Shown: piece after piece, positions 2,164 through 63,319 of the stretch
How the letters are laid out: each line of letters begins with the position of its first letter
Numbering within the stretch: position 1 is the stretch's first letter
From: a virus
Direction: 5' to 3' (one strand)
Virus record (IMG/VR): IMGVR_UViG_3300045988_090117
Location: 1 to 64,000 of that record
Length of the DNA stretch: 64,000 bases
Notes under the pieces: generated by a model
Seen by the model: the letters and a program-made list of their open reading frames with translations, nothing else
Database searches by the model: none
Told to the model about the DNA's origin: nothing
Position numbers and translations under genes: made by a program

Positions 2164-4077
2164 TTATTCTGTATAAGTAACTTTCACTGTCACACTACCA
2201 CTACATACTGCGTAGTTTGCAGAGTTGTAAGTAGATTGAATACCAAATCCTTTTACAGTTCCATTAGAAATTGCATTTAATATTGTGCTATTAGTTATAG
2301 TTAATTTACCACTGCTACCTACTGCAATTTTAACACTACCACAACTAGAACCATATGAAGGTTTTCCACTTGGTCTACTTGTGTAGTTATGAGTTTTTAC
2401 TTGTAGTGATACTCCTGAATAAGAACCACCTGATATTCTCTTAATAGTAAGTTCGATTTTACTAATAGATTTACCTTTGAACTGATTGAACTGACTACCA
2501 AAGAACCAACATCCATTACAGTCTCCATAACCATAATCACCTTGTCTACAAGTATTATCTTTTTTCCAGTTGTTATATACTGAACTTCTATAAGTATCAC
2601 CACTATTAGATTTTATTGTTACAGTTTTGGTAGTTGTCGGAGTAGGAGCTGTATTACCTGGGTCTGTAGTTTGGTTACCTCCTTCATGGTTAACATTTGT
2701 AGGAGCTATTATTTGACCTGGTAAACTCACATGGGTATTTGATTTACTACCACCGCATTGTCCACTGTTTGCTATTGTAATGCAGCCTCCACTTACTGCT
2801 TCGAATCCATACTGACTACATACACCACTTGAACCTGCGGCGTGTATTCTTCCTCCTGCATTTGCTCTAAAACCTATATCACAATTGACAAACTGTACAT
2901 TTTTATAATATCCAGTAGAATATGAATCACCTACAATACCAACAATGGCAGACGCTCCATTAGTAGCTTTATTATCACTACCGTATATTTTTACACTATA
3001 CGCATTAACTGGAGAACTTTCCTGTCCAATTAAACTACCAGTTCTACTGGCAACTGCACAACCTGTACTTGGATGTATTGTTCCTACATGACCTTCTTCA
3101 GTACCTGGCCAGCCACCATATACACGGACTTTAGTGGAACTCATATAATTTCTCACATAACCATACACTGTATTACCATCTAAGTATAAATTTATTACAC
3201 CACTAGTAAAAAACTGAAAATCTATATTTTCATAAATATCTTCTCGTATCCATATATTTACAGTTTTACCATTAAGAAATTTAGGTAGTGCGTCTAGTGT
3301 ACCTGCTACTGTAGCAAATATTGCCCCATCATATAATTCACTATTATCATCACCACTACTACTAATTTCTATTTGTATATCATCCTCTAATGTACTCGGG
3401 TATTGAGCACTATTTATTTTATTGGCGGTGATTGTATCAGCAGTTAACTCACCTTCAACTGAGAAACTATCTCCCACAACTTCACTACCTTTTATTTGTG
3501 CTCCAACAATATTACCTTCACTGTCTACACTAAAAGTATCATTTTGATTTCTAAAAGTACTACCTATTATAGTTGCACCTGTAATAGTTTTACCATCAAT
3601 AGCCCCATCAACTATCATATCACCATCTACTTTTACTTGTTTTGTTATTATATTTAATGCATCTTGTGTTAGTTGCATTGAACTTGCACTATTACCTCTA
3701 ACCATCCATGAAAATCTATCAGCTAATTGTTCGTATTTTGTTTCAGTGGCTTTTATTACTGAACTTTTGGTAATGGATGCCACGGGTATAGTTTTATTAA
3801 CAGTTGTTTTTCCTTCTATATTAATAGTGGCGTGTATTTCCCCTGCATTACCTGTTGCAGTAAGAAGAGTGATAGTTTTATAATCACTCTCCAATTTTGC
3901 TGTACAGTTAGTGGTATCTGTTATAGTTACTTTATATTGTCCTGTAGTTGGAGTCGTACTAACTGCGACTAATGGAGTAGTTCCATTGTATATATCAATT
4001 CTAGTATTTTTACTTGTTTGTTCTACCACAACTTTATTAACTGTTGTGGTGAACGTATTACTATATATTTCACTCAT
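2164..4077 (-). CDS. Tail fibre / receptor-binding protein
   Basis: 637 aa, Thr/Ser/Gly/Val-rich beta-type sequence with a Cys-rich C-terminal module. Its position in the fibre block and its strong RBS (AGGAGGTGG) support the call. No catalytic motif was recognised. Confidence 0.5.
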   Translation of the reverse strand: MSEIYSNTFTTTVNKVVVEQTSKNTRIDIYNGTTPLVAVSTTPTTGQYKVTITDTTNCTAKLESDYKTITLLTATGNAGEIHATINIEGKTTVNKTIPVASITKSSVIKATETKYEQLADRFSWMVRGNSASSMQLTQDALNIITKQVKVDGDMIVDGAIDGKTITGATIIGSTFRNQNDTFSVDSEGNIVGAQIKGSEVVGDSFSVEGELTADTITANKINSAQYPSTLEDDIQIEISSSGDDNSELYDGAIFATVAGTLDALPKFLNGKTVNIWIREDIYENIDFQFFTSGVINLYLDGNTVYGYVRNYMSSTKVRVYGGWPGTEEGHVGTIHPSTGCAVASRTGSLIGQESSPVNAYSVKIYGSDNKATNGASAIVGIVGDSYSTGYYKNVQFVNCDIGFRANAGGRIHAAGSSGVCSQYGFEAVSGGCITIANSGQCGGSKSNTHVSLPGQIIAPTNVNHEGGNQTTDPGNTAPTPTTTKTVTIKSNSGDTYRSSVYNNWKKDNTCRQGDYGYGDCNGCWFFGSQFNQFKGKSISKIELTIKRISGGSYSGVSLQVKTHNYTSRPSGKPSYGSSCGSVKIAVGSSGKLTITNSTILNAISNGTVKGFGIQSTYNSANYAVCSGSVTVKVTYTE

Positions 4078-4090
4078 TATTAACCACCTC

Positions 4091-6538
4091 CTAGCTTGTT
4101 TTAGTTAAATTACAATATGATAAATATTTACGTGGGTCATAACATCCATATCTTATTTTAGTAGTTTCGGCAACAAAAGTATATTTAGTATTATAATCAC
4201 CTGTAGTAGTAAATAACTCTTTAACAAAGTTATCATTATCATCATAAGCATAACACCATACCCATGTAGCATCCATTTGTAGTGAATAGTGTGCACCTTT
4301 TTCAACTGTTATTGGATTAACTGTTGCCCAGTCTTCTGTACTATCAACTATCTTATGTGTACTATTATCCACTTTTTTACCAAAAGTCATATTACCAATA
4401 GTACCTGGTTCTGGTTCTGGTGTAGCACCACCGGAATCCTTAGCTCTTAATACTCCATTTGATACTGTTAATGTAATTTGTTTTGATACACCTGAATGAG
4501 AAGTACCTGTGATTATTACTTCACCATTAGCACCTGCATAACTACTACATAATCCACTGTGGCAAGTTACTAAACTTGTATTATTAGATTGCCATGTAAT
4601 TGATTTATTAATACAGTTATCATTAAATTTTGGTCTAACAACACAATTATGTGAACTGTCGTTAAAATCTGTAGCCTCTAACTCAAAATCAGATGAATTT
4701 TCAACTAGATTATCTGTACTCAATGGATAATATTTTACCCAATCAACATATTGAGTTATTTCAGTTGTACTACTATCAGGAGTACCACCGCTAGCTCCAA
4801 TTGCTTGGTTAAGTAGTATAAAGTGCGGTATATGGAATGCTCTGTTATCAGTAGCACTTGTTCTTGATAATTCATTTCCATCAATAGAGAAAACTAAGCT
4901 GCCATCTGTATTCCATTCCATAGCAAACTCATGCCAATCACCAGTTGGATAATTATCATACCATACACGTCCGCTTTCTTCTTTTTCGTTGAAGAACGTA
5001 CCGCAAGTTAGCTTGCCATTATAAAATTCCATTACGTCAAATTCACCACAATATGCCCACCATTCACCTAGTGTATCAGGGCTACCATTTTCTTTATATC
5101 CAAATTCAAAACTATCTCCTAAAGTCCAAAATGCTCCAAAAGAACCATTGTAATTACATGCTCTAACTCTAGCAACTATCTTACCATACATGAAAGCAAA
5201 ATGACCTTTAGAGATAATTGATGCAGATGTCCAAGAACCATCACTTGCTTTTTTACCTCTTAAAGCTAATATACCATTGTTAACTTCAGCATTTGTATTT
5301 GTATATTTTTGAGTTTCATTATTTCTTACATAACCTAATTCATATGACCATTTATTTGAGTCTACACTACTACCTGAGAAATCATCGATTACATAAGCAC
5401 CAGTAGAATCTAATAATGAACTTGAACTTGAGCCATTTTCCTTCAATGTACCTGTAATAGCAGTACTTGCATCACCAGTAGCACATATTAATATTTTAGT
5501 TATATTTGCTGGCACAGTAAACGTATATGATAACTCTTTATTTGACCAATCATCTGTGTTGCCTTCGACAAATGATACATAAGAATTTGATGAATTATAA
5601 TAACAAACACATACATAATTAGCTTTATTAAGATTGATAGTATATGATTTACCAGCAGTTACACTTATATAATTTAATGTACTATAATATGCTCCATCTG
5701 TGGTATCTGCAATCACACCATCATTAAGTCTTTTATATTGAGTGAAAATCAATGCGTCTTTATTTACTAAAGTAACAGTAAATACATTACTTGTTTTAGT
5801 AGTACCTTTTGCAGTTGTCACTCTTATAGCCATTTGATAAGTTCCTGCATCACCCTTATTATCGTGTTTAAATCGATATCTTGTACCAGTGGATTCCACT
5901 TCGGTTGTTTTATCGTAGAATGTATTTCCTCCATCCCATGAAACTTCGTGTTTTGTTACCGCTATATTTGTACTATATTCAATATAAAATTCAGTTTTTT
6001 CAGTTTGTGTTATGTTTTCAATATTACTAATAGTTAGAGTTTCAGGTGTTACTGGAATTGCCTCAGTTGTAACAGTGATAGTAATGTTGCCAGTAACATT
6101 TGGTATATTAATATTACTTCCTCTAATAACAGTATTACTTATATCAGTTCCACCCATTACAACACTAATATTTTTTACATTATAGCCTTCATTAGCGGCC
6201 ACAATAGTTGAATAACTAGAACCTTTTTTAATTGATTTAGTTGAGTTACTACTTGTTGCTTGATTTAAAGTGTATGTTATAGTGTAGTATGTATCGGTAG
6301 TTCCTCCTCCACTCTCAGTATATACACATTTTAACTTACATTTATCATATGTACCATTATCCCAGTTACTAATATTAAAAACTGCACTAGACTTAGTAAA
6401 GGAAGTGGCACTTATATAAGTACTACCTCCATCTTTACTAAGTAGAATGTCTGAGATATTAGTAACATCGGTTGTAAAATTCACGGTCAAAGTATCGCCG
6501 GATGTACTGGGATTACTTGTTACAGTTATTGTTGCCAT
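4091..6538 (-). CDS. Tail fibre/spike protein with an internal GH16 (laminarinase-like) glycoside hydrolase domain and a Big_2-like domain
   Basis: 815 aa. Residues ~380-606 look like a ConA-like glucanase fold with the GH16 catalytic signature E-x-D-x-x-E = GEFDVMEF (codons at 5027-5044). A Big_2-like segment follows (ITWQSNNTSLVTCHSG...ITLTVSNG). Confidence 0.7.
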   Translation of the reverse strand: MATITVTSNPSTSGDTLTVNFTTDVTNISDILLSKDGGSTYISATSFTKSSAVFNISNWDNGTYDKCKLKCVYTESGGGTTDTYYTITYTLNQATSSNSTKSIKKGSSYSTIVAANEGYNVKNISVVMGGTDISNTVIRGSNINIPNVTGNITITVTTEAIPVTPETLTISNIENITQTEKTEFYIEYSTNIAVTKHEVSWDGGNTFYDKTTEVESTGTRYRFKHDNKGDAGTYQMAIRVTTAKGTTKTSNVFTVTLVNKDALIFTQYKRLNDGVIADTTDGAYYSTLNYISVTAGKSYTINLNKANYVCVCYYNSSNSYVSFVEGNTDDWSNKELSYTFTVPANITKILICATGDASTAITGTLKENGSSSSSLLDSTGAYVIDDFSGSSVDSNKWSYELGYVRNNETQKYTNTNAEVNNGILALRGKKASDGSWTSASIISKGHFAFMYGKIVARVRACNYNGSFGAFWTLGDSFEFGYKENGSPDTLGEWWAYCGEFDVMEFYNGKLTCGTFFNEKEESGRVWYDNYPTGDWHEFAMEWNTDGSLVFSIDGNELSRTSATDNRAFHIPHFILLNQAIGASGGTPDSSTTEITQYVDWVKYYPLSTDNLVENSSDFELEATDFNDSSHNCVVRPKFNDNCINKSITWQSNNTSLVTCHSGLCSSYAGANGEVIITGTSHSGVSKQITLTVSNGVLRAKDSGGATPEPEPGTIGNMTFGKKVDNSTHKIVDSTEDWATVNPITVEKGAHYSLQMDATWVWCYAYDDNDNFVKELFTTTGDYNTKYTFVAETTKIRYGCYDPRKYLSYCNLTKTS

Positions 6539-47955: not shown

Positions 47956-48789
47956 TTAAAATAATTTTTTCTGTTTCTTAGATGTGTTATTTTCCACGAT
48001 TACTTTATCATCCACATCATTCAATTTGTTATTTCCTATTCTATTGCTAGCTATGTTGAAATATTTTTCATCTTTTTCAATCCCGATGAAATCTCTATTA
48101 ATATTTAAACAAGCAACGCCAGTTGAACCACTACCCATTGTAAAATCCAATACTAGTTCACCTTCTCTGGTATATGTTTTTATGAGATATTCAAGTAGTG
48201 CTACTGGTTTTTGTGTTGGATGTACTCTTTTAGAATTAGCGCACTCTGTTGCTTGTGTGGAAATATTTATGATGTTTTTAGGATAACGTTCAGTTCCTTT
48301 TTTATTTTTTTCCGTTTTATAAAATTCTTCACTTTTTATTCCACTGAACAAATCAGTTTGTTTAATGGTTGGTTTCTCCTTAGTCAAATCTCTTTTGTTG
48401 TCTACAGTAAGTATAGGATAATAGTTTACTCGTTCCCCATTTCCAGTAAAAACTAATATTTCTTCCTCTACCTTAAGGGGTTGATATTTTGCGACTAATA
48501 TATTTCCTGCACTACTTTTATTCCATATCCATTGGTGTTTAAAATGTTTTATATTACTATAAATCAAACTTGTTGTAAAAGGCTGTGAGCCAAATAATAT
48601 TATACCTCCATTAGGTTTTATTAATTTGTTTAAGCTGCACCACATTTCATCTAAGGGTATAATAGAATCCCATTTGCAGCTAGTAGTGCCATATGGTGGG
48701 TCGGTTATTATGGCATCTACCTTTACTCCAGCTGCAATTAATTTGTCCATAATTTCCAGACAATCCCCATTGTATAATTTATAACTCAC
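47956..48789 (-). CDS. DNA methyltransferase 1 (N6-A/N4-C, DPPY beta-class)
   Basis: Motif IV is DAIITDPPYG. Motif I is VLDFTMGSGSTGVACLNINRDFIGIE, and HPTQKPVALLEYLI is present. GTG 48789 lies 6 nt after GGAGGG, with an alternative ATG at 48795. The track start at 48822 lies inside the promoter. Confidence 0.75.
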   Translation of the reverse strand: MSYKLYNGDCLEIMDKLIAAGVKVDAIITDPPYGTTSCKWDSIIPLDEMWCSLNKLIKPNGGIILFGSQPFTTSLIYSNIKHFKHQWIWNKSSAGNILVAKYQPLKVEEEILVFTGNGERVNYYPILTVDNKRDLTKEKPTIKQTDLFSGIKSEEFYKTEKNKKGTERYPKNIINISTQATECANSKRVHPTQKPVALLEYLIKTYTREGELVLDFTMGSGSTGVACLNINRDFIGIEKDEKYFNIASNRIGNNKLNDVDDKVIVENNTSKKQKKLF

Positions 48790-48819
48790 ATACATCCCTC
48801 CTTTATTTTTTCTTCCATA

Positions 48820-48855
48820 CAATTATAGTATAGAAAAAACCCGGTATTTACTAAC
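48820..48855 (-). promoter_or_regulatory. Phage promoter motif copy (-35 TTAGTA, 16 nt, -10 TATACT)
   Basis: Plus strand reads caattatagtatagaaaaaacccggtatttactaac. The -35 sits in the loop of the polA terminator hairpin. Confidence 0.65.
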
Positions 48856-48871: not shown

Positions 48872-49579
48872 TTATATTTCTATTCCTTCTCCATACCATC
48901 TATATGTACATTCTATATCAGTCTTCATTGGTATTTCAAATTTTCCGTCTACTACGTGTACCATAATGTACTCTAATATATCTCTCACCTCTTTGGCATT
49001 CTCTTTTGGACATACTCCCAATACTTCATCATGCACCGGTATGATTAATTTATATCCCAACTCTTGTAGTCTTTTATTGTCATGAATTCTTATCATTGCT
49101 ATCTTTGTCATGTCGGCTGCACTACCTTGAATTATACTGTTAACACATTGTCTTTGAGCGTCGGCTATATATCCACCATTATCCACTAATTTATATCCCT
49201 CATCCTTGGCCATTTGTTTTATTTTTTCTTTTGCCTCCTTACCAAAGGCTCTATTCATTAATTTAAGATATTTGAAGTAAACCTCATCGCTCACCTCTGT
49301 AGTGGACCCACCAGTAAAATCTAATGGATTAAAGGTATCAGCTAAATTAGGGTTTTCCACTGTTATCTCTATTGGATCTAGTTGCATATTTGGTAATCTT
49401 CTTTTTCTACCCCATGCAGTCTCTACAAAACCATACTCTCTTGCATTCTCTTGAGCAAATTCTACAAACTCTTTTACTCTTGGAAATTGTTTATAAAAGT
49501 CATTTATAACCTGTTGTGCTTCCTCTTTACTGATATTCATCTGCTCGGCTATACTTGTTACACCTCTACCATACATAAT
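48872..49579 (-). CDS. polA: DNA polymerase I (family A), exon 3
   Basis: Begins I-MYGRGVTSIAEQMNISKEEAQ, completing motif B (ILLG|IMYG). Contains VHDEVLG (motif C). Confidence 0.8.
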   Translation of the reverse strand: MMYGRGVTSIAEQMNISKEEAQQVINDFYKQFPRVKEFVEFAQENAREYGFVETAWGRKRRLPNMQLDPIEITVENPNLADTFNPLDFTGGSTTEVSDEVYFKYLKLMNRAFGKEAKEKIKQMAKDEGYKLVDNGGYIADAQRQCVNSIIQGSAADMTKIAMIRIHDNKRLQELGYKLIIPVHDEVLGVCPKENAKEVRDILEYIMVHVVDGKFEIPMKTDIECTYRWYGEGIEI

Positions 49580-50634
49580 CAGTTTATACCGCCCCTTTCG
49601 GGGTACTTTAACACTTGTTATGCCAAGTCGGCTTAGACTATATCATCCCTCTTACGAGGGGAGCGCTTCGTATATCGTACCAATAGATACACTACTCCAT
49701 AAAGGATAGTCGTTACACTTCTTCCCAATGGTAGCCGTATGCTCTTATATTTCTTTTCATACTCTCTTTTATTTGAGTATTACAACTTTGTGACGTTTTA
49801 GTTTTACATAAACCTTGTGCAACTAACCATTTCCATGCCTCAGTATAACTACTAAATGTTTTATCAAGTTCTATAAGTTTTACCGGTTTACGACATTTAC
49901 TTATTCTACCAGTATTACATTTACTTATAATATCTTTTGTTTCTTGTGTATGGTGTTTACCATAAAATGCATTATCTTTACCAGTATATTTACCTTGTCT
50001 AGCTTTACTTAGCGCTAATTTATGTTCCGGTGATTTTGCTACTCCTTTTAACTTAGATGCTCTTTGTTGTATGAAAAGTTGTCTATCAGTATCAGATAAT
50101 GTACTCCAAAATTGTCTACTGGCTTGAGACATTTTTAGTTTATCTTCATCCGTATGTTTATAACCAGGTACGCCAGCTCCACCTGGAGTCATATTATAAC
50201 CATCTTTATAACTATTAAATATTGATATATAATATACTTCTCTCTCATTTAATTTGTCTATTGAGCATTCCTCTAATAAATACATATGAAATTTATCAAC
50301 ACCATATTTAAGTAGTGCATTATGAAAATGTGTACCGTTATTTATATCAGAACTAGTATGTTCATACCATCTTTGTTTTAATGATGTACTTGTTTGTCCT
50401 ACATATACTTTATGATTAATATCGTCAATTACAATATAAATATATCCCATAATCTCACCCCCTTCACGGCTATCATTGTTGGTTAGCACGGTCTAACCAT
50501 ATGAGATATAAAATTATATTGGTTTATATATAATATTATAGCACACTTAGGCTTTAACCGTTAGCATAAAATAAAAAATTTTATACACCCCTGGTAGGGT
50601 TCACTTTCTTTTATTTGGGCTATACTTGTGGTTT
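49580..50634 (-). mobile_element. Group I intron 2 in polA (1055 nt) carrying a GIY-YIG endonuclease ORF
   Basis: The 5' exon ends in U (..TTGGGT|) and the intron ends in G (..AAACTG|ATT). GC-rich structured flanks sit in an AT-rich genome. The core element GATGATATAGTCTAAGCC (49630-49647) matches the group I S/P7 consensus AAGAUAUAGUC. Joining the exons restores the reading frame. Confidence 0.8.
49713..50450 (-). CDS. GIY-YIG homing endonuclease (intron-encoded)
   Basis: Contains GYIYIVIDDINHKVYVGQTS...WYEH...YN (GIY-YIG), NUMOD3-like repeats (HTDEDKLKMS, SPEHKLALS, HTQETKDIIS) and a C-terminal HTH. ATG 50450 follows GGGGGTGAG. Confidence 0.8.
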   Translation of the reverse strand: MGYIYIVIDDINHKVYVGQTSTSLKQRWYEHTSSDINNGTHFHNALLKYGVDKFHMYLLEECSIDKLNEREVYYISIFNSYKDGYNMTPGGAGVPGYKHTDEDKLKMSQASRQFWSTLSDTDRQLFIQQRASKLKGVAKSPEHKLALSKARQGKYTGKDNAFYGKHHTQETKDIISKCNTGRISKCRKPVKLIELDKTFSSYTEAWKWLVAQGLCKTKTSQSCNTQIKESMKRNIRAYGYHWEEV

Positions 50635-50964
50635 ACCCAATAATATAGGCTTAACGGAGCTTCTACGTTGTTTTCCTTCTGGGTTAACTGTACCGTCAGG
50701 TCTAAACTCCTTACATTCTTCATATGGTTGATTGTACAATTTACTTGCTATCGTGGCATATAGGTCCTTTCCATCTAAATACGCTTGTATCATATGTTTA
50801 TCGCCACTCATATGTGCTAAACATCTCGGCTCCTGCTGCGAAAAATCTCCACCTATTATTACATTGCCTTCTCCTGCAATAAACATTTGTCTTATATCAT
50901 GTCCAGCATCTATTACAGTCCCATCACTTAATTTCTTTGTTTTACTGGGTATATTTTGTAAATT
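50635..50964 (-). CDS. polA: DNA polymerase I (family A), exon 2
   Basis: 110 codons: NLQNIPSK...GGDFSQQEPRCLAH (motif A, DYSQIELR-like)...RRSSVKPILLG. Confidence 0.8.
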
Positions 50965-51693
50965 CACATTGTTAGCGTAGAGGCTCTTTATCCTCTACCT
51001 CTTATGGTTCGTATTCCCATAAGGTCAGACTATATCTCAAACTTATAAAAAGCGACCTGTCTCTTTATCTCGACGATTATTTAAATCGGTACTATGATAT
51101 TTTTCTTGATGTTCTGCACGTGTAGTCAAAACTAAATTTTCTATTCGATTATCCAACTTATTCCCATTCTTATGGTGAACTATCTCATCCGATGTTAACT
51201 TACGTCCTAAATAATCTTCCATAACTTTACGATGTACAAAATATCTATTATTCAACTCTGAAACAACTAAATAACCATCGTATAAATAAACACGTGGTTT
51301 TCGTCCTTCTCCACGTCTTTTAAGTTGTAATCGACTAGCTTTATGCAGAATACTACCCTCACTGCGATTTAAATATTCACTACATTGTTTAAGTCCTAAT
51401 TTCTCATAATTTTTAACAAGCCATTCTAATTCCGTTTTTGTCCATTGTTTTCTCATATACATTACCTCCTCCATTTACATAATAGTAACATATATGGAAT
51501 ATTTTGTAAACACTTTTTATAAGTCCAGGGGCGCTCGTGGATGGGTTATTGGTGTGCTCCTCACCATCTAGTCGTTAGACTTTCACGGTACATTTTTACA
51601 CTTCCCGTGCTTAGTACGGTATTAGCATCGCAGCCTTCACCGTTTCACCCCTGTATGCATCTATCATATCACTATGATAGCGCCCAATTATTT
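50965..51693 (-). mobile_element. Group I intron 1 in polA (729 nt) carrying an HNH endonuclease ORF
   Basis: The splice restores TGRFSSSNP|NLQNIP. The 5' exon ends in U and the intron ends in G. A structured GC-rich 5' part lies at 51475-51693. The core element GAGATATAGTCTGACC is at 51023-51038. Confidence 0.8.
51043..51456 (-). CDS. HNH homing endonuclease (intron-encoded)
   Basis: Contains [24 protein letters not shown] (HNH) and an N-terminal SANT/HTH-like [16 protein letters not shown] 51456 lies 8 nt after GGAGGAGG. Confidence 0.75.
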
Positions 51694-53010
51694 AGGATTA
51701 CTACTACTAAAACGTCCTGTCTTTGCGCCATACTGGTTGAAGTTCGCGTGTAACTTACCAGTTCTTTTGCTTATATGGTCAGGAATGGCATCAATATAAG
51801 TACTTAATAGTTTACTCATACCTCTATACTCTAATATACTATTCACTAATGGGTGGTTTAATTGTTTCAGTTGTTCTTCTCCCACGCTACGTTGACCTTT
51901 TGGTGGCTCTAATTTTAAGACATCATAGAATAATATTACTAACTGTTGATTACTTCCTATATTAATTTTCACATCTCCAAATTCACTTATTTTGCCATAC
52001 TTGTCTGGATGCTTAACTCGTAGGTCATTAAATGCGCCCTGCTTATCCAGCTTCTCTACTTCGGTATTAAATTCATTAAGAGCATTATCCATATACGTAG
52101 TATATCGTTGTTTTAACTCTTGAGCTAAGTTTGTATCTATATCTACTCCTTGTGCCTCCATATCGAATACTACTTCTATTAATGGCATTTCTATATTCCT
52201 GAATACATCTGCCACCCTTTCAAGTCCTTTTTTATAACAGTATTTTCCATCTCTGTCCAAATACTCACGTTGAAATTCATATAATTCAAAAGTCATTATA
52301 GGGTCAAAGGCTGCGTACATATAGCCAACATCTGGAGGTATTTTATTGAACTCAATGCCATTAAATAATTCACCAAATTTACCTACCTCAGCACTTTCAC
52401 CAGTACAATACTTTTGCCATAATACTTTTAAGCCATGTGGTTCATTTTCATTAAGTAAATACCCTCCAATTAATGTGTCCCAGTATGGTACTATTTTTAC
52501 TCCTACCATCCAATATAATATATGCATATCGAACTTAGCGTTATGTAGCACAAATCTAATATTATTATCTGACCAAGATTGTATTAATTTCCTAACTACT
52601 TCAATAGATACATTACTTTGTAATTCCGTATTTGTCATATAACTTATATGTCCTACTGGAATATAAATACCTTTTTCATATGGTGTATAAAGACATATAC
52701 CAGCTACTTTTCCGTCTATTCTATCAAGTCCGTTTGTCTCAGTATCTAGTGCTACTATGCCATTGGCTACTACTTTTTTATCGAACTGTTTTAACCTATC
52801 TTCACTAGTTACTAATTCCATTCTATCTAGTCTATCAGCAAATATTTTAGTAGACATCATCTTTGCATATTCTACTTTATCCTTCATTGTCTTAGGTACT
52901 ATTGATGTTACTGGCGCTCTTTTATTTTTCTTTTTACTCAACACTTCTAACGCTTTTTTATTCGCCTCTTTGTTATTACAACGACTAAATGTATCTTTAA
53001 ACAAACTCAT
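51694..53010 (-). CDS. polA: DNA polymerase I (family A), exon 1 (3'-5' exonuclease and N-terminal polymerase part)
   Basis: 439 codons. Exo motifs are VALDTETNGL and HNAKFDM. It ends ...NQYGAKTGRFSSSNP. The track ORF continues one codon (K, then stop) into the intron. Confidence 0.8.
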
Positions 53011-56257: not shown

Positions 56258-56293
56258 TATATATAGTATAGTAAGACTTTATTTTTTACTAAC
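56258..56293 (-). promoter_or_regulatory. Phage promoter motif copy (-35 TTAGTA, 16 nt, -10 TATACT)
   Basis: Plus strand reads tatatatagtatagtaagactttattttttactaac. The -35 overlaps the stop of the sigma-like gene. Confidence 0.65.
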
Positions 56294-56891
56294 TCAATAA
56301 ATAATTTAATTTCTTTTGAAGTGCACGTCTAATTCCAACAACACCTGCAGTACTAACTCCAATTTCCCTTGCCATGTGAGATTGTTGTAAGTCACACATA
56401 TGGTCAAGTGCTACCATACAGTATTGTAATTGTTTTTCAGATAAATCTTCCTTATGTACTAAGTCAGATAATTCAACTTTGTCATACTCATCTTCAACAC
56501 TTGCTTCCTCCCATCTATCTTCAGTTGTTTCATAACAACTCATTGGAGTACATTGGTCACCGTTGTTGGCTTTACGTTTATTACTCGCATTACTTTGTGT
56601 TAGAGTTCTAAGAGCATTCTTGATATAAACACATATCATAGAAGTAAGTTTACCACTAGTACTCTTTTCAGCATCAAAGTTTTCAAAACATTTCCATATT
56701 TGTTCTAATATAACACTTGTAACTTCATCATCACTTACACCAACATATTTTTTACTCACTTGATAGAATAAACTTTTATTTGTTTCAAATACATATGCAA
56801 TAACTTCATCATGAAAACCTGCTTGATAATCTTTTATTAATTCCTCATCAGTGTGTTTTAAACCATAAACTTTTACAACATCGTTAAACAT
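56289..56891 (-). CDS. Second phage sigma-70 family factor
   Basis: 200 aa. The region 2-like part is VTSVILEQIWKCFENFDAEKSTSGKLTSMICVYIKNALR. The region 4-like HTH is QSHMAREIGVSTAGVVGIRRALQKKL. Confidence 0.55.
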   Translation of the reverse strand: MFNDVVKVYGLKHTDEELIKDYQAGFHDEVIAYVFETNKSLFYQVSKKYVGVSDDEVTSVILEQIWKCFENFDAEKSTSGKLTSMICVYIKNALRTLTQSNASNKRKANNGDQCTPMSCYETTEDRWEEASVEDEYDKVELSDLVHKEDLSEKQLQYCMVALDHMCDLQQSHMAREIGVSTAGVVGIRRALQKKLNYLLS

Positions 56892-56940
56892 ACATCATTC
56901 CCCCTGAACTGTATTTTTTTATTTACTTTCTATATTTATA

Positions 56941-56969
56941 ATTATATAAAGGTTTATATAATTAATCAA
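56941..56969 (-). promoter_or_regulatory. Consensus host sigma-A-type promoter (TTGATT, 17 nt, TATAAT) driving the sigma-like gene
   Basis: Minus strand reads TTGATTaattatataaacctttaTATAAT, with -35 at 56964-56969 and -10 at 56941-56946. Confidence 0.65.
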
Positions 56970-58340: not shown

Positions 58341-58436
58341 AAAATAAAAACCCCTGACACTGTCCGCTCCAATGCCAGGGTAAAAAAAGGGGAGTTATAT
58401 TATGAGTAGAAGAATGTGCCTCCACATTTCCTCTAC
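58341..58436 (-). ncRNA. Candidate small RNA, unit A (~96 nt, bounded by promoter and terminator)
   Basis: Minus strand reads GTAGAGGAAATGTGGAGGCACATTCTTCTACTCATAATATAACTCCCCTTTTTTTACCCTGGCATTGGAGCGGACAGTGTCAGGGGTTTTTATTTT. It has a 5' 13-bp hairpin, a C-rich linker and a terminator hairpin (58352-58380) with a U-run. Confidence 0.5.
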
Positions 58437-59766: not shown

Positions 59767-60479
59767 TATATTCTCACCCCTTTTGGTTTCCTTTGTGGCT
59801 TGTTAATAAATTCTACTATTGTACTTGTATCTAATATTCTACTCGCCAACCTACCACCAATATTATCATCTAACTGTTCATCAATAACATTACTAGTAAA
59901 TATATTAGCTTTATTATTTACTATACGTGGGTTAATAAGACTAAATAATATTTGGTGGTCATATTCTTTTAACTTAGTTACTCCTATGTCGTCCCAAATT
60001 ACAAGATCTACTGTTGGTATTAATTTTTCCATTTCTTCTAGTCTCAAGTCAGGTCGTTTTATGGCATTTCTTTTAGCCATTAAGAACTCATCTACATTGA
60101 TGAATAGACCTCTACAACGTGTGCCATTGCCATTCCAAATATTACTAAAATATTTACTCATTAACTTTATTGCCCACGTAGTTTTACCATTACCAAAATA
60201 TGGGCTATATAAATATAAGTTACATCCATCTTGTACAAATTCATTGATATTATTCTTTACACCATTAAGATACTCGTACTTTTTAAGATCATCACCCGCA
60301 CTCAACTTCAAGTCCTCAGGTTGCTGCTTATTCGGTGGAATATTTGCCAAGTTAACCAAATAATAATATTGAAAATATACACTACAACTACAATTGCAGT
60401 CCTTTGTATTATACATAGGACAGTTAGTCCTAAACCAACATTTATCTTTATTAAATTTAAATTCTTTTACATCATACAT
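59766..60479 (-). CDS. DnaC/IstB-like AAA+ helicase loader with a Cys-rich N-terminus
   Basis: 237 aa. Walker A is SPYFGNGKTTWA and Walker B is LVIWDDIG. The N-terminus has CWFRTNCPMYNTKDCNCSC. Confidence 0.65.
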   Translation of the reverse strand: MYDVKEFKFNKDKCWFRTNCPMYNTKDCNCSCSVYFQYYYLVNLANIPPNKQQPEDLKLSAGDDLKKYEYLNGVKNNINEFVQDGCNLYLYSPYFGNGKTTWAIKLMSKYFSNIWNGNGTRCRGLFINVDEFLMAKRNAIKRPDLRLEEMEKLIPTVDLVIWDDIGVTKLKEYDHQILFSLINPRIVNNKANIFTSNVIDEQLDDNIGGRLASRILDTSTIVEFINKPQRKPKGVRI

Positions 60480-60495
60480 ACTAAAAACCTCCCTT

Positions 60496-60531
60496 TATTT
60501 ATAGTATAGTAAAAAATCTACTTTTACTAAC
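60496..60531 (-). promoter_or_regulatory. Phage promoter motif copy (-35 TTAGTA, 16 nt, -10 TATACT)
   Basis: Plus strand reads tatttatagtatagtaaaaaatctacttttactaac. It restarts transcription after the unit B terminator. Confidence 0.65.
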
Positions 60532-60534
60532 AAG

Positions 60535-60632
60535 AAAAAACCCCCGATACCAAAGGGGGGGGGTAGATATCGGGGTAAAAAATAAATATTAAGGGGTTAT
60601 ATATGTAAGGGGCTGAATACCATATTCCTTAC
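60535..60632 (-). ncRNA. Candidate small RNA, unit B (~98 nt, bounded by promoter and terminator; C9 loop)
   Basis: Minus strand reads GTAAGGAATATGGTATTCAGCCCCTTACATATATAACCCCTTAATATTTATTTTTTACCCCGATATCTACCCCCCCCCTTTGGTATCGGGGGTTTTTT. Its architecture is homologous to unit A. Confidence 0.5.
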
Positions 60633-60667
60633 ATATATAGTATAGAAAAAATCCCCATTTTGCTAAC
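60632..60667 (-). promoter_or_regulatory. Phage promoter motif copy (-35 TTAGCA, 16 nt, -10 TATACT)
   Basis: Minus strand reads GTTAGCAAAATGGGGATTTTTTCTATACTATATATG. It lies directly after the methyltransferase 2 stop. Confidence 0.7.
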
Positions 60668-60669
60668 TA

Positions 60670-61425
60670 CTAAAATAATTTTCTTTGTCTACTAATCGTC
60701 TCTAATCTATCTTTAGTTATATTAAAATATTTTTTATCTAACTCAATTCCGATAAACCTTCTATTTAAATTCAAACAAGCCACTCCGGTACTACCTGAAC
60801 CCATTGTAAAGTCAAGAATTACATCACCTTCATTTGTATATGTTTTAACTAAATATTCAAGCAATGCGACTGGCTTTTGTGTTGGATGATATCTATTTTT
60901 AACATCTCTATTAAATTTAATAATTGAAACAGGGTATCTTTTGCCATCATTCTTAGATATATAGCCATCAATCGTCCCTACGCCTCTATATACACCACGC
61001 ACACGAGGTCTTTTTACTACATATGGTTCCCCCTCTGTAAATTGTGGATTATATGTGGGTAACTTTTTATAAAACACCAATATATTCTCATGTTTCTTTA
61101 GTGGCATTCTTTTAGCATTAAGCCCACCTGTTCCCTGTTCTTTTTCCCATATCCATTCATATCTAAGCATCTCTAAATTACTAACTCCAAGAACTTTATC
61201 AAATGGAGTTTGAGCAAATAAACATATAACTGCATTATCTTTTATTAATTTATTTAGTCTCTCCCACATACCATCTAATGGGATTATTGAATCCCATTTA
61301 CAGGCAGTTGTCCCGTATGGGGGATCTGTAATTATAGCATCGACTTTTACACCCCCCTTAATCAACTTATCCATTATTTCCAGGCAATCACCATTATATA
61401 ATTTATAGTTTTCATTATTATTCAT
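60670..61425 (-). CDS. DNA methyltransferase 2 (N6-A/N4-C, DPPY beta-class), close paralogue of 47956-48789
   Basis: Contains DAIITDPPYGTTACKWDSIIPLDGMW...HPTQKPVALLEYLVKTYTNEGDVILDFTMGSGSTGVACLNLNRRFIGIE. Confidence 0.8.
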   Translation of the reverse strand: MNNNENYKLYNGDCLEIMDKLIKGGVKVDAIITDPPYGTTACKWDSIIPLDGMWERLNKLIKDNAVICLFAQTPFDKVLGVSNLEMLRYEWIWEKEQGTGGLNAKRMPLKKHENILVFYKKLPTYNPQFTEGEPYVVKRPRVRGVYRGVGTIDGYISKNDGKRYPVSIIKFNRDVKNRYHPTQKPVALLEYLVKTYTNEGDVILDFTMGSGSTGVACLNLNRRFIGIELDKKYFNITKDRLETISRQRKLF

Positions 61426-61452
61426 ACAGACTCATCTCCTTATTTTTATTTA

Positions 61453-61488
61453 CAAATAAAGTATATAAAAATGTAAAAATTTGCTAAC
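61453..61488 (-). promoter_or_regulatory. Phage promoter motif copy (-35 TTAGCA, 16 nt, -10 TATACT)
   Basis: Minus strand reads GTTAGCAAATTTTTACATTTTTATATACTTTATTTG. Confidence 0.6.
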
Positions 61489-61512
61489 TAAAATAAAAAA
61501 AACTCTTGAATG

Positions 61513-62331
61513 TTATCTAAATCTTTTGTTTCTAGTAGAAACTTTATCATCTACTATTTCTCTTTTACATCTCCATTTTTCAAATTTTTTAATTTCATCT
61601 TTATCACCAATATATTTTTTCTTTAATGCTGCTATAGTGTTCCCCATAAAATGTTCCTCATCTTCCATCATATATAACTCTACCCATTTTTCGGCAGTTT
61701 CTTTTATATCTAAATATAATTGCCAAGGGTATTTATTGTCTGTATCCATAAATAAGTTAAATAATGGTTGTTTCATGTATATTTTTTTCAAACCACCTTT
61801 ATAAGAAGCTATTTGAGCCATGACTTTACTTAAAGCTATACATTTTTTACTATCACCTATTATTTCATAAAAATCATATGTTTCATGTGCTTCTTGTCGT
61901 CTAAATGATAATAACTGTTCTTTTAAATGTTCTGCTACTATAAATTTCTCACAATCAACAAAGTATTTTCTTAATTCCTTACTTATTCGTTTTGTTTCTT
62001 TATTTACTCTAGGTTTAGCTCCTATTGTCATCACTATTTCATTCGCTATATCCAATGATATAAAATAATCTGTGTGTGGTCGACCTCCAGTACTTTTTCG
62101 TTTTAAAACGATAAAGTCTATTCCTTCTTCAGCATCTATTTCTTTTAATACCTTTGGCATCCAATCAGCAAAATGTGTAGTAGTTTTATTTAATCGTATA
62201 CCCTTAAATAATTCAAAACCATCAATTCCTAATAACGGTTTCCCTTCTGTACCTAAATATTCTACATCTTCATATATAGGTACTATTTCACTTAGTGCGA
62301 AGTCTTTAATACGCCATTTTTTATTTCTCAT
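61513..62331 (-). CDS. AntA/AntB-type antirepressor-domain protein
   Basis: ...FADWMPKVLKE...GIDFIVL...GGRPHTDYFISLDIANEIVM...ISKELRKYFVDCEK matches my memory of the AntA pattern (dY.ltldmAKel.M...R.YFI.cE). The start is ATG 62331 (9 nt after GAGGAG) or 62340. Confidence 0.55.
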   Translation of the reverse strand: MRNKKWRIKDFALSEIVPIYEDVEYLGTEGKPLLGIDGFELFKGIRLNKTTTHFADWMPKVLKEIDAEEGIDFIVLKRKSTGGRPHTDYFISLDIANEIVMTIGAKPRVNKETKRISKELRKYFVDCEKFIVAEHLKEQLLSFRRQEAHETYDFYEIIGDSKKCIALSKVMAQIASYKGGLKKIYMKQPLFNLFMDTDNKYPWQLYLDIKETAEKWVELYMMEDEEHFMGNTIAALKKKYIGDKDEIKKFEKWRCKREIVDDKVSTRNKRFR

Positions 62332-62363
62332 GTTCCCCATCTCCTCAAATTTTATTTATCCTA

Positions 62364-62399
62364 CACATATAGTATATAAAAATGTTAAAATTTGCTAAC
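62364..62399 (-). promoter_or_regulatory. Phage promoter motif copy (-35 TTAGCA, 16 nt, -10 TATACT)
   Basis: Minus strand reads GTTAGCAAATTTTAACATTTTTATATACTATATGTG. It restarts transcription after the unit C terminator. Confidence 0.65.
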
Positions 62400-62410
62400 T
62401 AAAATAAATA

Positions 62411-62586
62411 AAAAAAAATTCCAGTGGGTTACCAAGCCACTGGAATGTATATGGGGATTGTTAATAATTTCTTATTAGTTGGTTATATGAAGTTAATCAC
62501 CTACTCTCTTATTATACACTATTGGGTCATATAAGAAAATAATAAAAATTAAAATAATATAAAAATAATTTAATAAAATAAGTTAC
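62411..62586 (-). ncRNA. Candidate small RNA, unit C (~176 nt, bounded by promoter and terminator)
   Basis: Very AT-rich body with no SD-led ORF. It ends ...AACAATCCCCATATAC, followed by a 10-bp terminator hairpin (62418-62427 / 62437-62446) and U8. Confidence 0.45.
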
Positions 62587-62621
62587 ATATATAATATAGA
62601 AATTTTGGTCAATTTACTAAC
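62586..62621 (-). promoter_or_regulatory. Phage promoter motif copy (-35 TTAGTA, 16 nt, -10 TATATT)
   Basis: Minus strand reads GTTAGTAAATTGACCAAAATTTCTATATTATATATG. It lies directly after the methyltransferase 3 stop. Confidence 0.6.
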
Positions 62622-62623
62622 TA

Positions 62624-63319
62624 CTAAAATAATTTTTTCTGTCTATTATTCAACTTAACATTTTCAAGTCGTTCTTTAGATATATTAAAGTAATTTTCAT
62701 TTAATTCAATTCCTATGAATCTTCTATTAGTATTTAAACAAGCAACACCTGTGCTGCCACTACCCATAAATGAGTCTAAAATTAAGTCATTTTCATTTGT
62801 TGATTGTTTTATAAAGATCTCTAATAAATCAACAGGTTTTTGTGTTGGATGCAATTTATTTCCAGTTCTTTTAGCTTGTATGACATCTGGTAATCTTTTA
62901 CCGTTTCTTAATCTTCGTCCTTTATGTCCAAATAATATAAATTCATGCTTAGGGGCATATGATCCCTTTAAATCGCCCATAGATATATTATTCTTTTCCC
63001 ATACTATTATATTTTTTAATGTGAAGTATTTTTCAAATGCAATTTTAAATTTATCTATATGATGCCAACTACAAAAGCAATATATATGAGTATTATCTTT
63101 TAACAATTTATCACATTTTTGAAAATATTCATCTAAAAATGATAAATCATCATCATTACTAATTTGCTTATATTTTTCTTTTCTACGATTACTTTTAAAC
63201 TCCATACCATAGGGTGGATCGGATATTACTGCATCCACTTTTACTCCATCTTTAATTAATTTATCCATAATTTCTAAGCAGTCACCTTGATATAATTTAT
63301 ACCTTTCATTATTATTCAT
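62624..63319 (-). CDS. DNA methyltransferase 3 (N6-A/N4-C, DPPY beta-class), more divergent paralogue
   Basis: Contains DAVISDPPYG...HPTQKPVDLLEIFIKQSTNENDLILDSFMGSGSTGVACLNTNRRFIGIE. It shares the N-terminus MNNNERYKLYQGDCLEIMDKLIKDGVKVD and the C-terminal KKLF with the other two. Confidence 0.75.
   Translation of the reverse strand: MNNNERYKLYQGDCLEIMDKLIKDGVKVDAVISDPPYGMEFKSNRRKEKYKQISNDDDLSFLDEYFQKCDKLLKDNTHIYCFCSWHHIDKFKIAFEKYFTLKNIIVWEKNNISMGDLKGSYAPKHEFILFGHKGRRLRNGKRLPDVIQAKRTGNKLHPTQKPVDLLEIFIKQSTNENDLILDSFMGSGSTGVACLNTNRRFIGIELNENYFNISKERLENVKLNNRQKKLF

Follow-up and report, generated by a model that had tools for sequence, protein, structure and literature searches.

A probable gene for a C-rich small RNA upstream of the DnaC-like gene of an uncultured tailed phage

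Unit B is a 98 nucleotide (nt) stretch on the minus strand (60632-60535) of IMG/VR virus record IMGVR_UViG_3300045988_090117. The window is the stretch of that record analyzed here, positions 1 to 64,000, and coordinates refer to it unless a related contig is named. Judged from sequence, unit B is most likely a conserved gene for a small non-coding RNA (sRNA) of roughly 95 nt (92-98 nt). The evidence lies in its anatomy, in its conservation and the selection acting on it, in covariation within its structure, and in the accessibility of its C-rich motifs. We consider the chances about even that unit B is a free-standing sRNA gene whose C-rich RNA acts in trans by pairing with Shine-Dalgarno sequences (SDs).

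Anatomy of unit B

The features of unit B and its surroundings are as follows.

60670 to 60479, minus strand: interval holding unit B, from a methyltransferase stop to the DnaC-like start
60633..60669, minus strand: predicted promoter of unit B, from a consensus scan; conserved in all relatives
60632, minus strand: G, predicted first transcribed nucleotide (+1)
60605..60632, minus strand: 5′ hairpin, from the minimum free energy fold
60576..60604, minus strand: single-stranded linker AUAUAUAACCCCUUAAUAUUUAUUUUUU
60541..60575, minus strand: intrinsic terminator hairpin, an inverted repeat
60535..60540, minus strand: U6 tract finishing the terminator (5-9 U in relatives)
60501..60530, minus strand: second phage-consensus promoter, TTAGTAAAA ... 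TATACTAT, predicted to serve the DnaC-like gene; conserved in all relatives
60479-59766, minus strand: DnaC-like gene

A sequence-only reading had described unit B as a self-contained unit of promoter, RNA and terminator followed by a second promoter, and as one of several such units in this phage. A check of the sequence found every feature it listed in place on the minus strand, and the phage carries three such units (A, B and C). The predicted promoter of unit B is of the sigma-70 type (TTAGCA-16-TATACT at 60666-60639, 9 of 12 consensus matches). It has a −35-like TTAGCA (60666-60661), a 16 nt spacer that ends in TTTTC, and a −10 TATACT (60644-60639) followed by ATATAT. The extended consensus, GTTAG(T/C)AAA-N13-TTTTCTATACTATATATG, occurs 17 times in the window, always on the coding (minus) strand, and its copies include those at 60666-60637, 58470-58441, 53825-53796 and 25638-25609. 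Fourteen of the 17 lead into an SD and a gene. In the other three cases, a terminator occurs within 90-180 nt and another promoter copy comes after it; these are units A, B and C. The uniformity of the promoters suggests recognition by a dedicated factor, possibly a phage sigma-like protein. The sister clade has the form GTTAACA...TGTATATAATATA.

The 5′ hairpin pairs GUAAGG(A) (60632-60627) with (C)CCUUAC (60610-60605) across a variable loop of 14-16 nt, so that its 5′ arm is SD-like and its 3′ arm is CU-rich. In the linker, a U-rich tract accompanies a conserved motif, AAC-CC(C)-UUAAUAU, whose CCCC is at 60596-60593; unit C and units of distant phages have linker motifs of this kind too. The arms of the terminator, CCCCGAUA/UAUCGGGG (60575-60568, 60549-60542), are 100% complementary. 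Its 10 bp stem is CCCCGAUAUC/GGUAUCGGGG, with six G-C pairs, and its 14 nt loop is UACCCCCCCCCUUU. This GC-rich stem-loop is followed directly by U6 and has a folding energy of −16.8 kcal/mol on its own, as is typical of an intrinsic (Rho-independent) terminator. The loop, 9-14 nt among the variants, is larger than typical terminator loops. Two homopolymers stand out: C9 at 60563-60555, in the terminator loop, and G5 at 60545-60541.

The whole of unit B has a predicted folding energy of −24.9 kcal/mol (z = −2.17 against dinucleotide shuffles). A second fold, excluding the first, had been proposed in which a C-run pairs with GGGGG. Forcing the 5′ CCCC out of its stem yields this alternative at −18.3 kcal/mol, which is 6.6 kcal/mol less stable than the predicted fold and still ends in a hairpin and a U-run, so there are not two competing folds. 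The window has a GC content of ~32%, and C makes up 12.4% of its transcribed strand. That strand holds 23 runs of four C or longer. The 98 nt of unit B contain four of these, where ~0.03 would be expected (Poisson estimate), and units A and C have one each.

Conservation, selection and RNA structure

A search of IMG/VR with the DnaC-like protein resulted in 17 contigs of close relatives (L001-L017, 91-96% amino-acid identity). Unit B is located directly upstream of the DnaC-like gene in 17/17 of them. The gene further upstream varies and can be a methyltransferase, another open reading frame (ORF), or unit A itself. Units A and C are also found in the close relatives. The terminator DNA pattern returned 17 additional copies of unit B in metagenome contigs, which score 89-113 bits with a model built from unit B. 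The mean pairwise identity of unit B is 0.875, compared to 0.708 at the fourfold-degenerate sites and 0.751 at the third codon positions of the adjacent gene. Its parts have the following mean pairwise identities.

5′ hairpin stem: 0.965
Terminator stem: 0.915
Unpaired linker: 0.897
5′ hairpin loop: 0.729
Terminator loop: 0.717

Thus, unit B is more conserved than neutral sites, the linker included, and the RNA is under purifying selection.

This conservation does not extend to a peptide. The sequence-only reading had kept open a leader peptide, MVFSPLHI, from a tiny ORF with AAGGA 2 nt from the AUG. Both the ORF and the AAGGA exist, and the AUG lies 9 nt from the predicted 5′ end. A spacing of only 2 nt is too near for a working SD, and the SD-like arm is sequestered in the hairpin. 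We surveyed ORFs and loop lengths in 25 distinct variants of unit B. The ORF is not a conserved feature, as neither its occurrence nor its length nor its frame is constant among them. Variants of the L001 type have no AUG; the ORF is one amino acid long in L006, L007 and L119; and it is eight amino acids long in the window and in L016, with largely different sequences. The remaining variants have a frame of 30-45 amino acids that reads across the terminator and enters the next promoter, and linker indels put it out of register. We rate a leader peptide or micro-protein as extremely unlikely.

Covariation and folding were examined in 16 distinct variants. Standard pairs fill 97.8% of the paired cells, compared to 29-50% after the 3′ partners are slid by 1-3 columns, a shuffle control that is not a probability. 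The terminator stem is paired in 100% of its cells and the 5′ hairpin in 94.6%. The variants divide evenly at terminator pair 66:95, eight with C-G and eight with U-A; pair 69:92 alternates between A-U and G-U, and one pair of the 5′ hairpin occurs as A-U, G-U and G-C. On the opposite strand, the G-U pairs would turn into C-A mismatches, and the structure thus belongs to the minus-strand transcript.

The strand specificity of the structure argues against unit B being an element that works as DNA, either as part of a replication origin or as a phase-variable G9/C9 tract. Such an element would fit with the adjoining replication genes, with the A/T-rich 16-mer between GC-rich hairpins, and with a homopolymer whose length differs among the relatives, as the sequence-only reading had proposed to check. 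Length variation there is, as listed below for the C-run of the terminator loop in the 25 variants.

C4: 3 variants
C5: 7 variants
C6: 12 variants
C8: 2 variants
C9: 1 variant (this window)

The run thus ranges from 4 to 9, and at least four C are always kept. We see no sign of a phase-variable switch, because the run sits in a loop where a change in length alters no frame or spacing; it lies outside any reading frame or promoter spacer. There are no iterons, only short two-copy repeats, the equivalent units of relatives are at other positions, and unit B is framed by a perfect promoter and terminator. We consider a DNA-level element very unlikely.

The C-run of the terminator loop is unpaired with a probability of 1.0 in every folded variant. 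The C-run of the linker is unpaired with a probability of 0.94-1.0 in 10 of the 16 and 0.52-0.60 in five; L010 is without a run of three C there. A further CCCC had been thought to be exposed by the 5′ hairpin, and this one turns out to be mostly paired (probability unpaired 0.01-0.13), as it is in most variants. A separate unpaired CCCC in the hairpin loop is found only in L001-type variants (L001, L002). The C-run of the terminator loop often reads CUCCCCCC (the L004 type) or UUCCCCC. Many variants contain an exact UCCC or CUCCC string; the loop of the window itself reads UACCCCCCCCC. We also considered whether the loop C-run covaries with an arm of the 5′ stem (ACCUC...ACCUC), and this is ruled out by L002, which has a CCCC stem with a CCUCCCCCC loop.

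Sibling units and the wider family

Two other units in the window share the layout of unit B.

58344..58434, minus strand: unit C, which follows the DnaB stop codon directly and is paralogous to unit B
62410..62583, minus strand: unit A, with the promoter/terminator layout of unit B; not detectably homologous to it

The sequence-only reading had taken units A and B to be homologous and had missed unit C. A covariance model built from unit B only (R1) gives 89 bits for unit B and nothing for unit A (E ≤ 10). It matches unit C instead (36.2 bits, E = 3.5e−4), and matched unit C again in metagenome contigs. Unit C has a predicted promoter at 58470-58441 and a 13 bp 5′ hairpin with a GGAGG or GGCGG loop and compensatory changes, and it is conserved in L001-L017. 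Its linker is CAUAAUAUAACUCCCCUUUUUUU, which contains AACUCCCCUUUUUUU, and its terminator is ACCCUGGCA...UGUCAGGGG. Units B and C share a 5′ GUA start, a 5′ hairpin, a linker core of AUAUAAC(C/U)CCC(C)UU, a U tract, and a terminator beginning with ACCC. A kissing interaction between the loops of the two (CCUCC in B with GGAGG or GGCGG in C) was tried and rejected, as there is no covariation across loci. Unit A carries a single-stranded AAUCCCCAUAUAC immediately before its terminator.

A profile search resulted in 11 more contigs, of distant relatives with 65-69% DnaC identity, whose nucleotide sequences are too divergent to align with unit B. The early region of these phages holds 3-5 mini units. 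Units with the design of unit B are found in L088 (2468-2567), L084 (2364-2465) and L092 (1655-1776). These have a 5′ hairpin, a linker with (A)AUCUCCC(CC)UUUU, an A/U-rich tract, and a terminator loop with CUCCCCCU, on terminator stems that differ (CUGAGUUGA/UCAACUCAG compared to AACCAGUUAAGA/UCUUAACUGGUU). The unit after DnaB in the distant phages starts with GUAAGGAAG, like unit B, and shows UUCCCCAUU in its hairpin loop. C-rich loops occur in 5 of the 43 distinct terminator hairpins of these sequences, and all five belong to B-type units. The C-rich motif in linker and terminator loop is thus a conserved design and not an accident of the window. Unit C and these analogues across clades are new here, and together they define a family.

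Units resembling unit A are located upstream of DnaC in the distant phages (L082-L093, ~3340-3450). They keep a terminator loop of (C)YUGGUAA(C) over four different covarying stems, and a conserved loop on covarying stems suggests that they are a separate functional RNA family. The most distant relative (L018/L090, 61% DnaC identity) has a C-rich 5′ UTR (untranslated region) without a terminator in the position of unit B (2056-2181, AAAGCCCUUCCACAGCCCCUGG...), and after DnaB it has a unit with ACCCUUAAU and GAACCCCUUUUCUUUUUU motifs (4244-4333). This layout hints at how units may turn over between leaders and free-standing RNAs.

A degenerate pattern of unit B resulted in 45 loci in a genome collection. 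By R1 these are chance matches (best 25 bits) without terminator or context, and in that collection we found neither a cellular homologue of unit B nor a host assignment. Matches to the terminator-stem pattern in marine phages (L097, L100, L109 and others) have the same stem and are unrelated by context.

The recurrence of these units bears on two other explanations. Unit B could be an empty expression cassette or module boundary, i.e., a leftover promoter and terminator that insulate operons, with the RNA as a by-product. Such a cassette could have arisen if a small gene was lost and left its SD and AUG behind as GUAAGGAAUAUG. In keeping with this, the 5′ end, GUAAGGA..., matches the start of a real mRNA leader (promoter 25638-25609, then GUAAGGAGUUGAUAAGAAUG), the units sit at junctions of differing gene content, and the relatives compared are close (91-96% DnaC identity). 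However, the unpaired linker is more conserved (0.897) than neutral sites (0.708), the architecture and C-rich motifs recur on unrelated sequence at 65-69% DnaC identity, 3-5 such units are kept per phage, and a by-product would need no conserved C-run in its loop. We find an empty cassette quite unlikely.

Alternatively, unit B could be a cis-acting leader (an attenuator, or a put-like or riboswitch-like element) controlling read-through into the DnaC-like and DnaB genes. Unit B is always immediately upstream of the DnaC-like gene, its loop CCCCCCUUU is complementary at 8/9 positions to the DnaC SD AAAGGGAGG, 55 nt downstream, and the region equivalent to unit B in L018 is the 5′ UTR described above. 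However, the conserved full-consensus promoter at 60530-60501, between the terminator and the gene, argues against a leader or attenuator. There is no competing antiterminator, given that the sole alternative fold is the weaker one above and is still a terminator. Paralogous and analogous units are found elsewhere, after DnaB or, in distant phages, ~1 kb upstream of the DnaC-like gene, and no Rfam cis-regulatory family matches. There is only a slim chance that unit B is such a leader.

Possible mode of action and candidate targets

The transcription of unit B, its action in trans, its pairing with SDs and the targets it might have are inferences from the features above, and the free-standing sRNA would work as follows. 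Transcription would start at the G at 60632 from the repeated phage promoter and stop at the strong intrinsic terminator (60541-60535). The RNA is predicted to fold into the 5′ hairpin and the terminator hairpin, leaving two C-runs unpaired, one in the linker (AACCCCUUAAUAU) and one in the terminator loop (C4-C9). It belongs to a multicopy set sharing CU-rich motifs that resemble UCUCCCCCUUU. This motif resembles the anti-Shine-Dalgarno tail of 16S rRNA, with C replacing the central U. Unit B may then act in trans in the manner of Firmicute sRNAs of the LhrC, RsaE/RoxS and FsrA class, its C-rich sites pairing with G-rich SDs of host and/or phage mRNAs and blocking or tuning the initiation of translation. 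That unit B exposes C-rich motifs able to pair with SDs was also the view of the sequence-only reading, and the unpaired C-runs of linker and terminator loop bear it out.

Most genes of the phage have GGAGG-type SDs. SDs with GGGG(G) are found at 63319, 56891, 46868, 39201, 36255 and 34219. The gene beginning at 56891 is only a lead as a target.

56891-56289 (region 56289-56969), minus strand: sigma-factor-like gene, 200 amino acids; no Pfam hit

Its product matches PHROG 351, RNA polymerase sigma factor (E = 6e−8). The AlphaFold model is modest (pLDDT 61), and nearly all of its top PDB matches by Foldseek are sigma factors. The product is probably a sigma-70-family factor. The gene has a canonical, host-type TTGATT-17-TATAAT promoter, not the phage consensus. 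Its SD, CAGGGGGAAU, is found in 16/16 of the close loci that have the gene (L010 has G6), and it is a G5 run in the four distant loci inspected (L084, L085, L088, L092), where the protein is ~36% identical. When the translation-initiation regions of local genes are ranked for B-type units, that of the sigma-like gene comes first to third, and some B loops (the L001 and L011 types) read AUUCCCCC(U), which is complementary to its SD over 8-9 nt. Another candidate, the SD of DnaB as a conserved G-run target, was rejected; the site is inside the DnaC coding sequence and is not conserved.

Several observations weigh against an sRNA that pairs with SDs, and against the sigma-like gene in particular. 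We found no target that covaries with the sRNA. Beyond the C5:G5 core the flanks of the loop vary, and the site CAGGGGGAAU is invariant. A C-run will pair with any G-rich SD, which makes the ranking of the sigma-like gene close to trivial. Clostridium phage phiCTP1 has a homologue, gp43 (26% identity, E = 3e−15), with the same GAGGGGGAAAU SD, and there is no B-like unit in the 11 kb around it. Covariation within unit B is modest because its sequences are closely related, and double-sided changes are found in only two pairs. Unit B also matches neither LhrC nor RsaE, nor any other Rfam family. The annotation of gp43 as a "putative response regulator" is probably a mis-annotation.

Some of these observations would be equally expected of a real sRNA that acts as a protein decoy, or sponge, its CU-rich motifs titrating an RNA-binding protein such as a KH- or S1-domain protein, Rho, ribosomal protein S1, or a phage-encoded factor. 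Several short loop and linker motifs spread across sibling RNAs are the usual design of a sponge, a constant C-run core with varying flanks suits a protein-binding motif as well as a seed, and no covarying mRNA target was found. However, we did not identify a candidate protein, and the apparent likeness of the motif to the anti-SD tail of 16S rRNA would point to base pairing. The sRNAs of similar motif and layout that have been studied, LhrC and others, act by SD pairing (PMC4132741). We regard a sponge as unlikely, and SD pairing in trans as the better description of unit B.

In its broadest form, this description would be that a clade of uncultured gut Firmicute phages keeps 3-5 independently transcribed sRNAs in its replication module, which selectively mask GGGGG-type ribosome-binding sites, with host mRNAs and the sigma-like gene as possible targets. 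We offer this as a doubtful proposal. If true, it would be a case of RNA-based control by a phage of both translation and the transcription program. Masking of G-rich ribosome-binding sites would be a compact way to reshape translation in the host or the phage, and the units would form a ready-made set of short orthogonal regulators. For virulent phages of Gram-positive bacteria, regulatory sRNAs are a field that has hardly been explored.

The phage and its gene content

The genes of the window are all on the minus strand, and together they point to a tailed phage that encodes its own machinery for replication. They include a family-A DNA polymerase, a clamp, a clamp loader, a UvsX-like recombinase, a ribonucleotide reductase, a primase, DnaB and a DnaC/IstB-like loader, along with a terminase, a portal and a major head protein. 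A metagenome contig in ENA (ERZ27263600, 68.8 kb) matches the window. We did not find a near match to the window among GenBank phages, where distant matches are confined to the methyltransferase genes. The nearest proteins are 43-52% identical and come from phages of Bacillus, Clostridium and Streptococcus, and one related contig is labeled as human gut metagenome. The source is best explained as a lytic-type phage of low-GC Firmicutes, ~69 kb in length, with at least one related contig from the human gut.

Three separate N6/N4-type DNA methyltransferase genes (Pfam PF01555) are located at 62624-63319, 60670-61425 and 47956-48822, and a possible further methylase is near 44361-43192. This set suggests a heavy investment in evading restriction. 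In L001-L017, the content between sRNA units in the 0-4 kb upstream of the DnaC-like gene differs despite the 91-96% identity. Methyltransferases and an AntA-like gene are variably present there, and unit A abuts unit B in L013-L015. The promoter- and terminator-flanked units thus border a mosaic, exchangeable region.

The family-A DNA polymerase (48872-53010, minus strand) is split over three ORFs (51688-53010, 50620-50967, 48872-49576). Two insertions part them, one with an HNH ORF (51043-51474) and one with a GIY-YIG/NUMOD3 homing-endonuclease ORF (49713-50489). Both are flanked by GC-richer, structured-looking RNA (51475-51687, 49577-49712), for which Rfam gives no hit. The insertions are probably two group I introns.

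Comparison with known RNAs

A scan of the whole window and of seven related loci against Rfam at the gathering thresholds found no family. A permissive scan (cmscan, 60300-62800, E ≤ 10) returned neither LhrC (RF00616) nor RsaE, and a permissive scan at unit C gave nothing meaningful. All permissive hits are below threshold and at the level of chance. The best one for unit B, though weak, is RsaOG/RsaI (RF01775), with 20.8 bits and E = 3.7, where the gathering threshold is 50. Its alignment covers exactly 60632-60535, and the elements follow one another as in unit B, first a 5′ hairpin, then an A/U-rich linker, then a terminator. The alignment rests on these generic features, and unit B is thus not a member of the family.

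Among phages, the c4 RNA of P1/P7, sar of P22 and OOP of lambda are short transcripts that act on ribosome-binding sites and have a promoter and a terminator of their own. These are antisense or specifically matched to one neighboring target; unit B, by contrast, offers no more than short C-rich motifs of a generic kind and is part of a multicopy family. A multi-omics study of a lytic Listeria phage from 2025 reports that the abundant RNAs of that phage lack UCCC motifs and canonical terminators (PMC12282133). In the literature searched, we found no report of a phage-encoded RNA of the type of unit B. If the broad proposal of 3-5 sRNAs masking GGGGG-type sites is true, they would be the first counterpart of the multicopy LhrC/RsaE class to be carried by a phage.

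RsaE/RoxS, RNAIII, SprD and FsrA share with unit B unpaired C-rich motifs in loops or linkers; theirs pair with SDs and block translation initiation, and the UCCC motif has been called characteristic of sRNAs of low-GC bacteria that block SDs, namely RNAIII, RsaE, SprD and FsrA (PMC4132741). Unit B differs from the RsaE/RoxS type in having no Rfam match and a different size and fold. The RsaE/RoxS-type sRNAs are encoded on chromosomes and answer to signals of the host, whereas the promoter of unit B is a constitutive-looking one of the phage.

The closest likeness is to LhrC1-5 of Listeria monocytogenes, a set of multicopy sRNAs (Sievers et al., 2014, PMC4132741) whose sites can all bind the G-rich SD region of lapB (PMC4132741). 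Unlike LhrC, unit B is on a phage and not on a bacterial chromosome, and the C-run of its first hairpin is mostly paired and not displayed. There is no similarity between the two in sequence or by covariance model. LhrC sites bind the SD regions of target mRNAs, whereas for unit B the duplexes with G-run SDs are in silico only. What the two appear to share is a G-poor RNA with redundant CU-rich sites (CUCCC...UUUU) in a single-stranded stretch and in the terminator loop. Both also come as several sibling copies, and every copy is flanked by a promoter and a terminator of its own. Unit B is best described as having the anatomy of an LhrC/RsaE-type sRNA while not being a member of those families, and as representing a new phage-encoded family of UCCC-type, C-rich RNAs.

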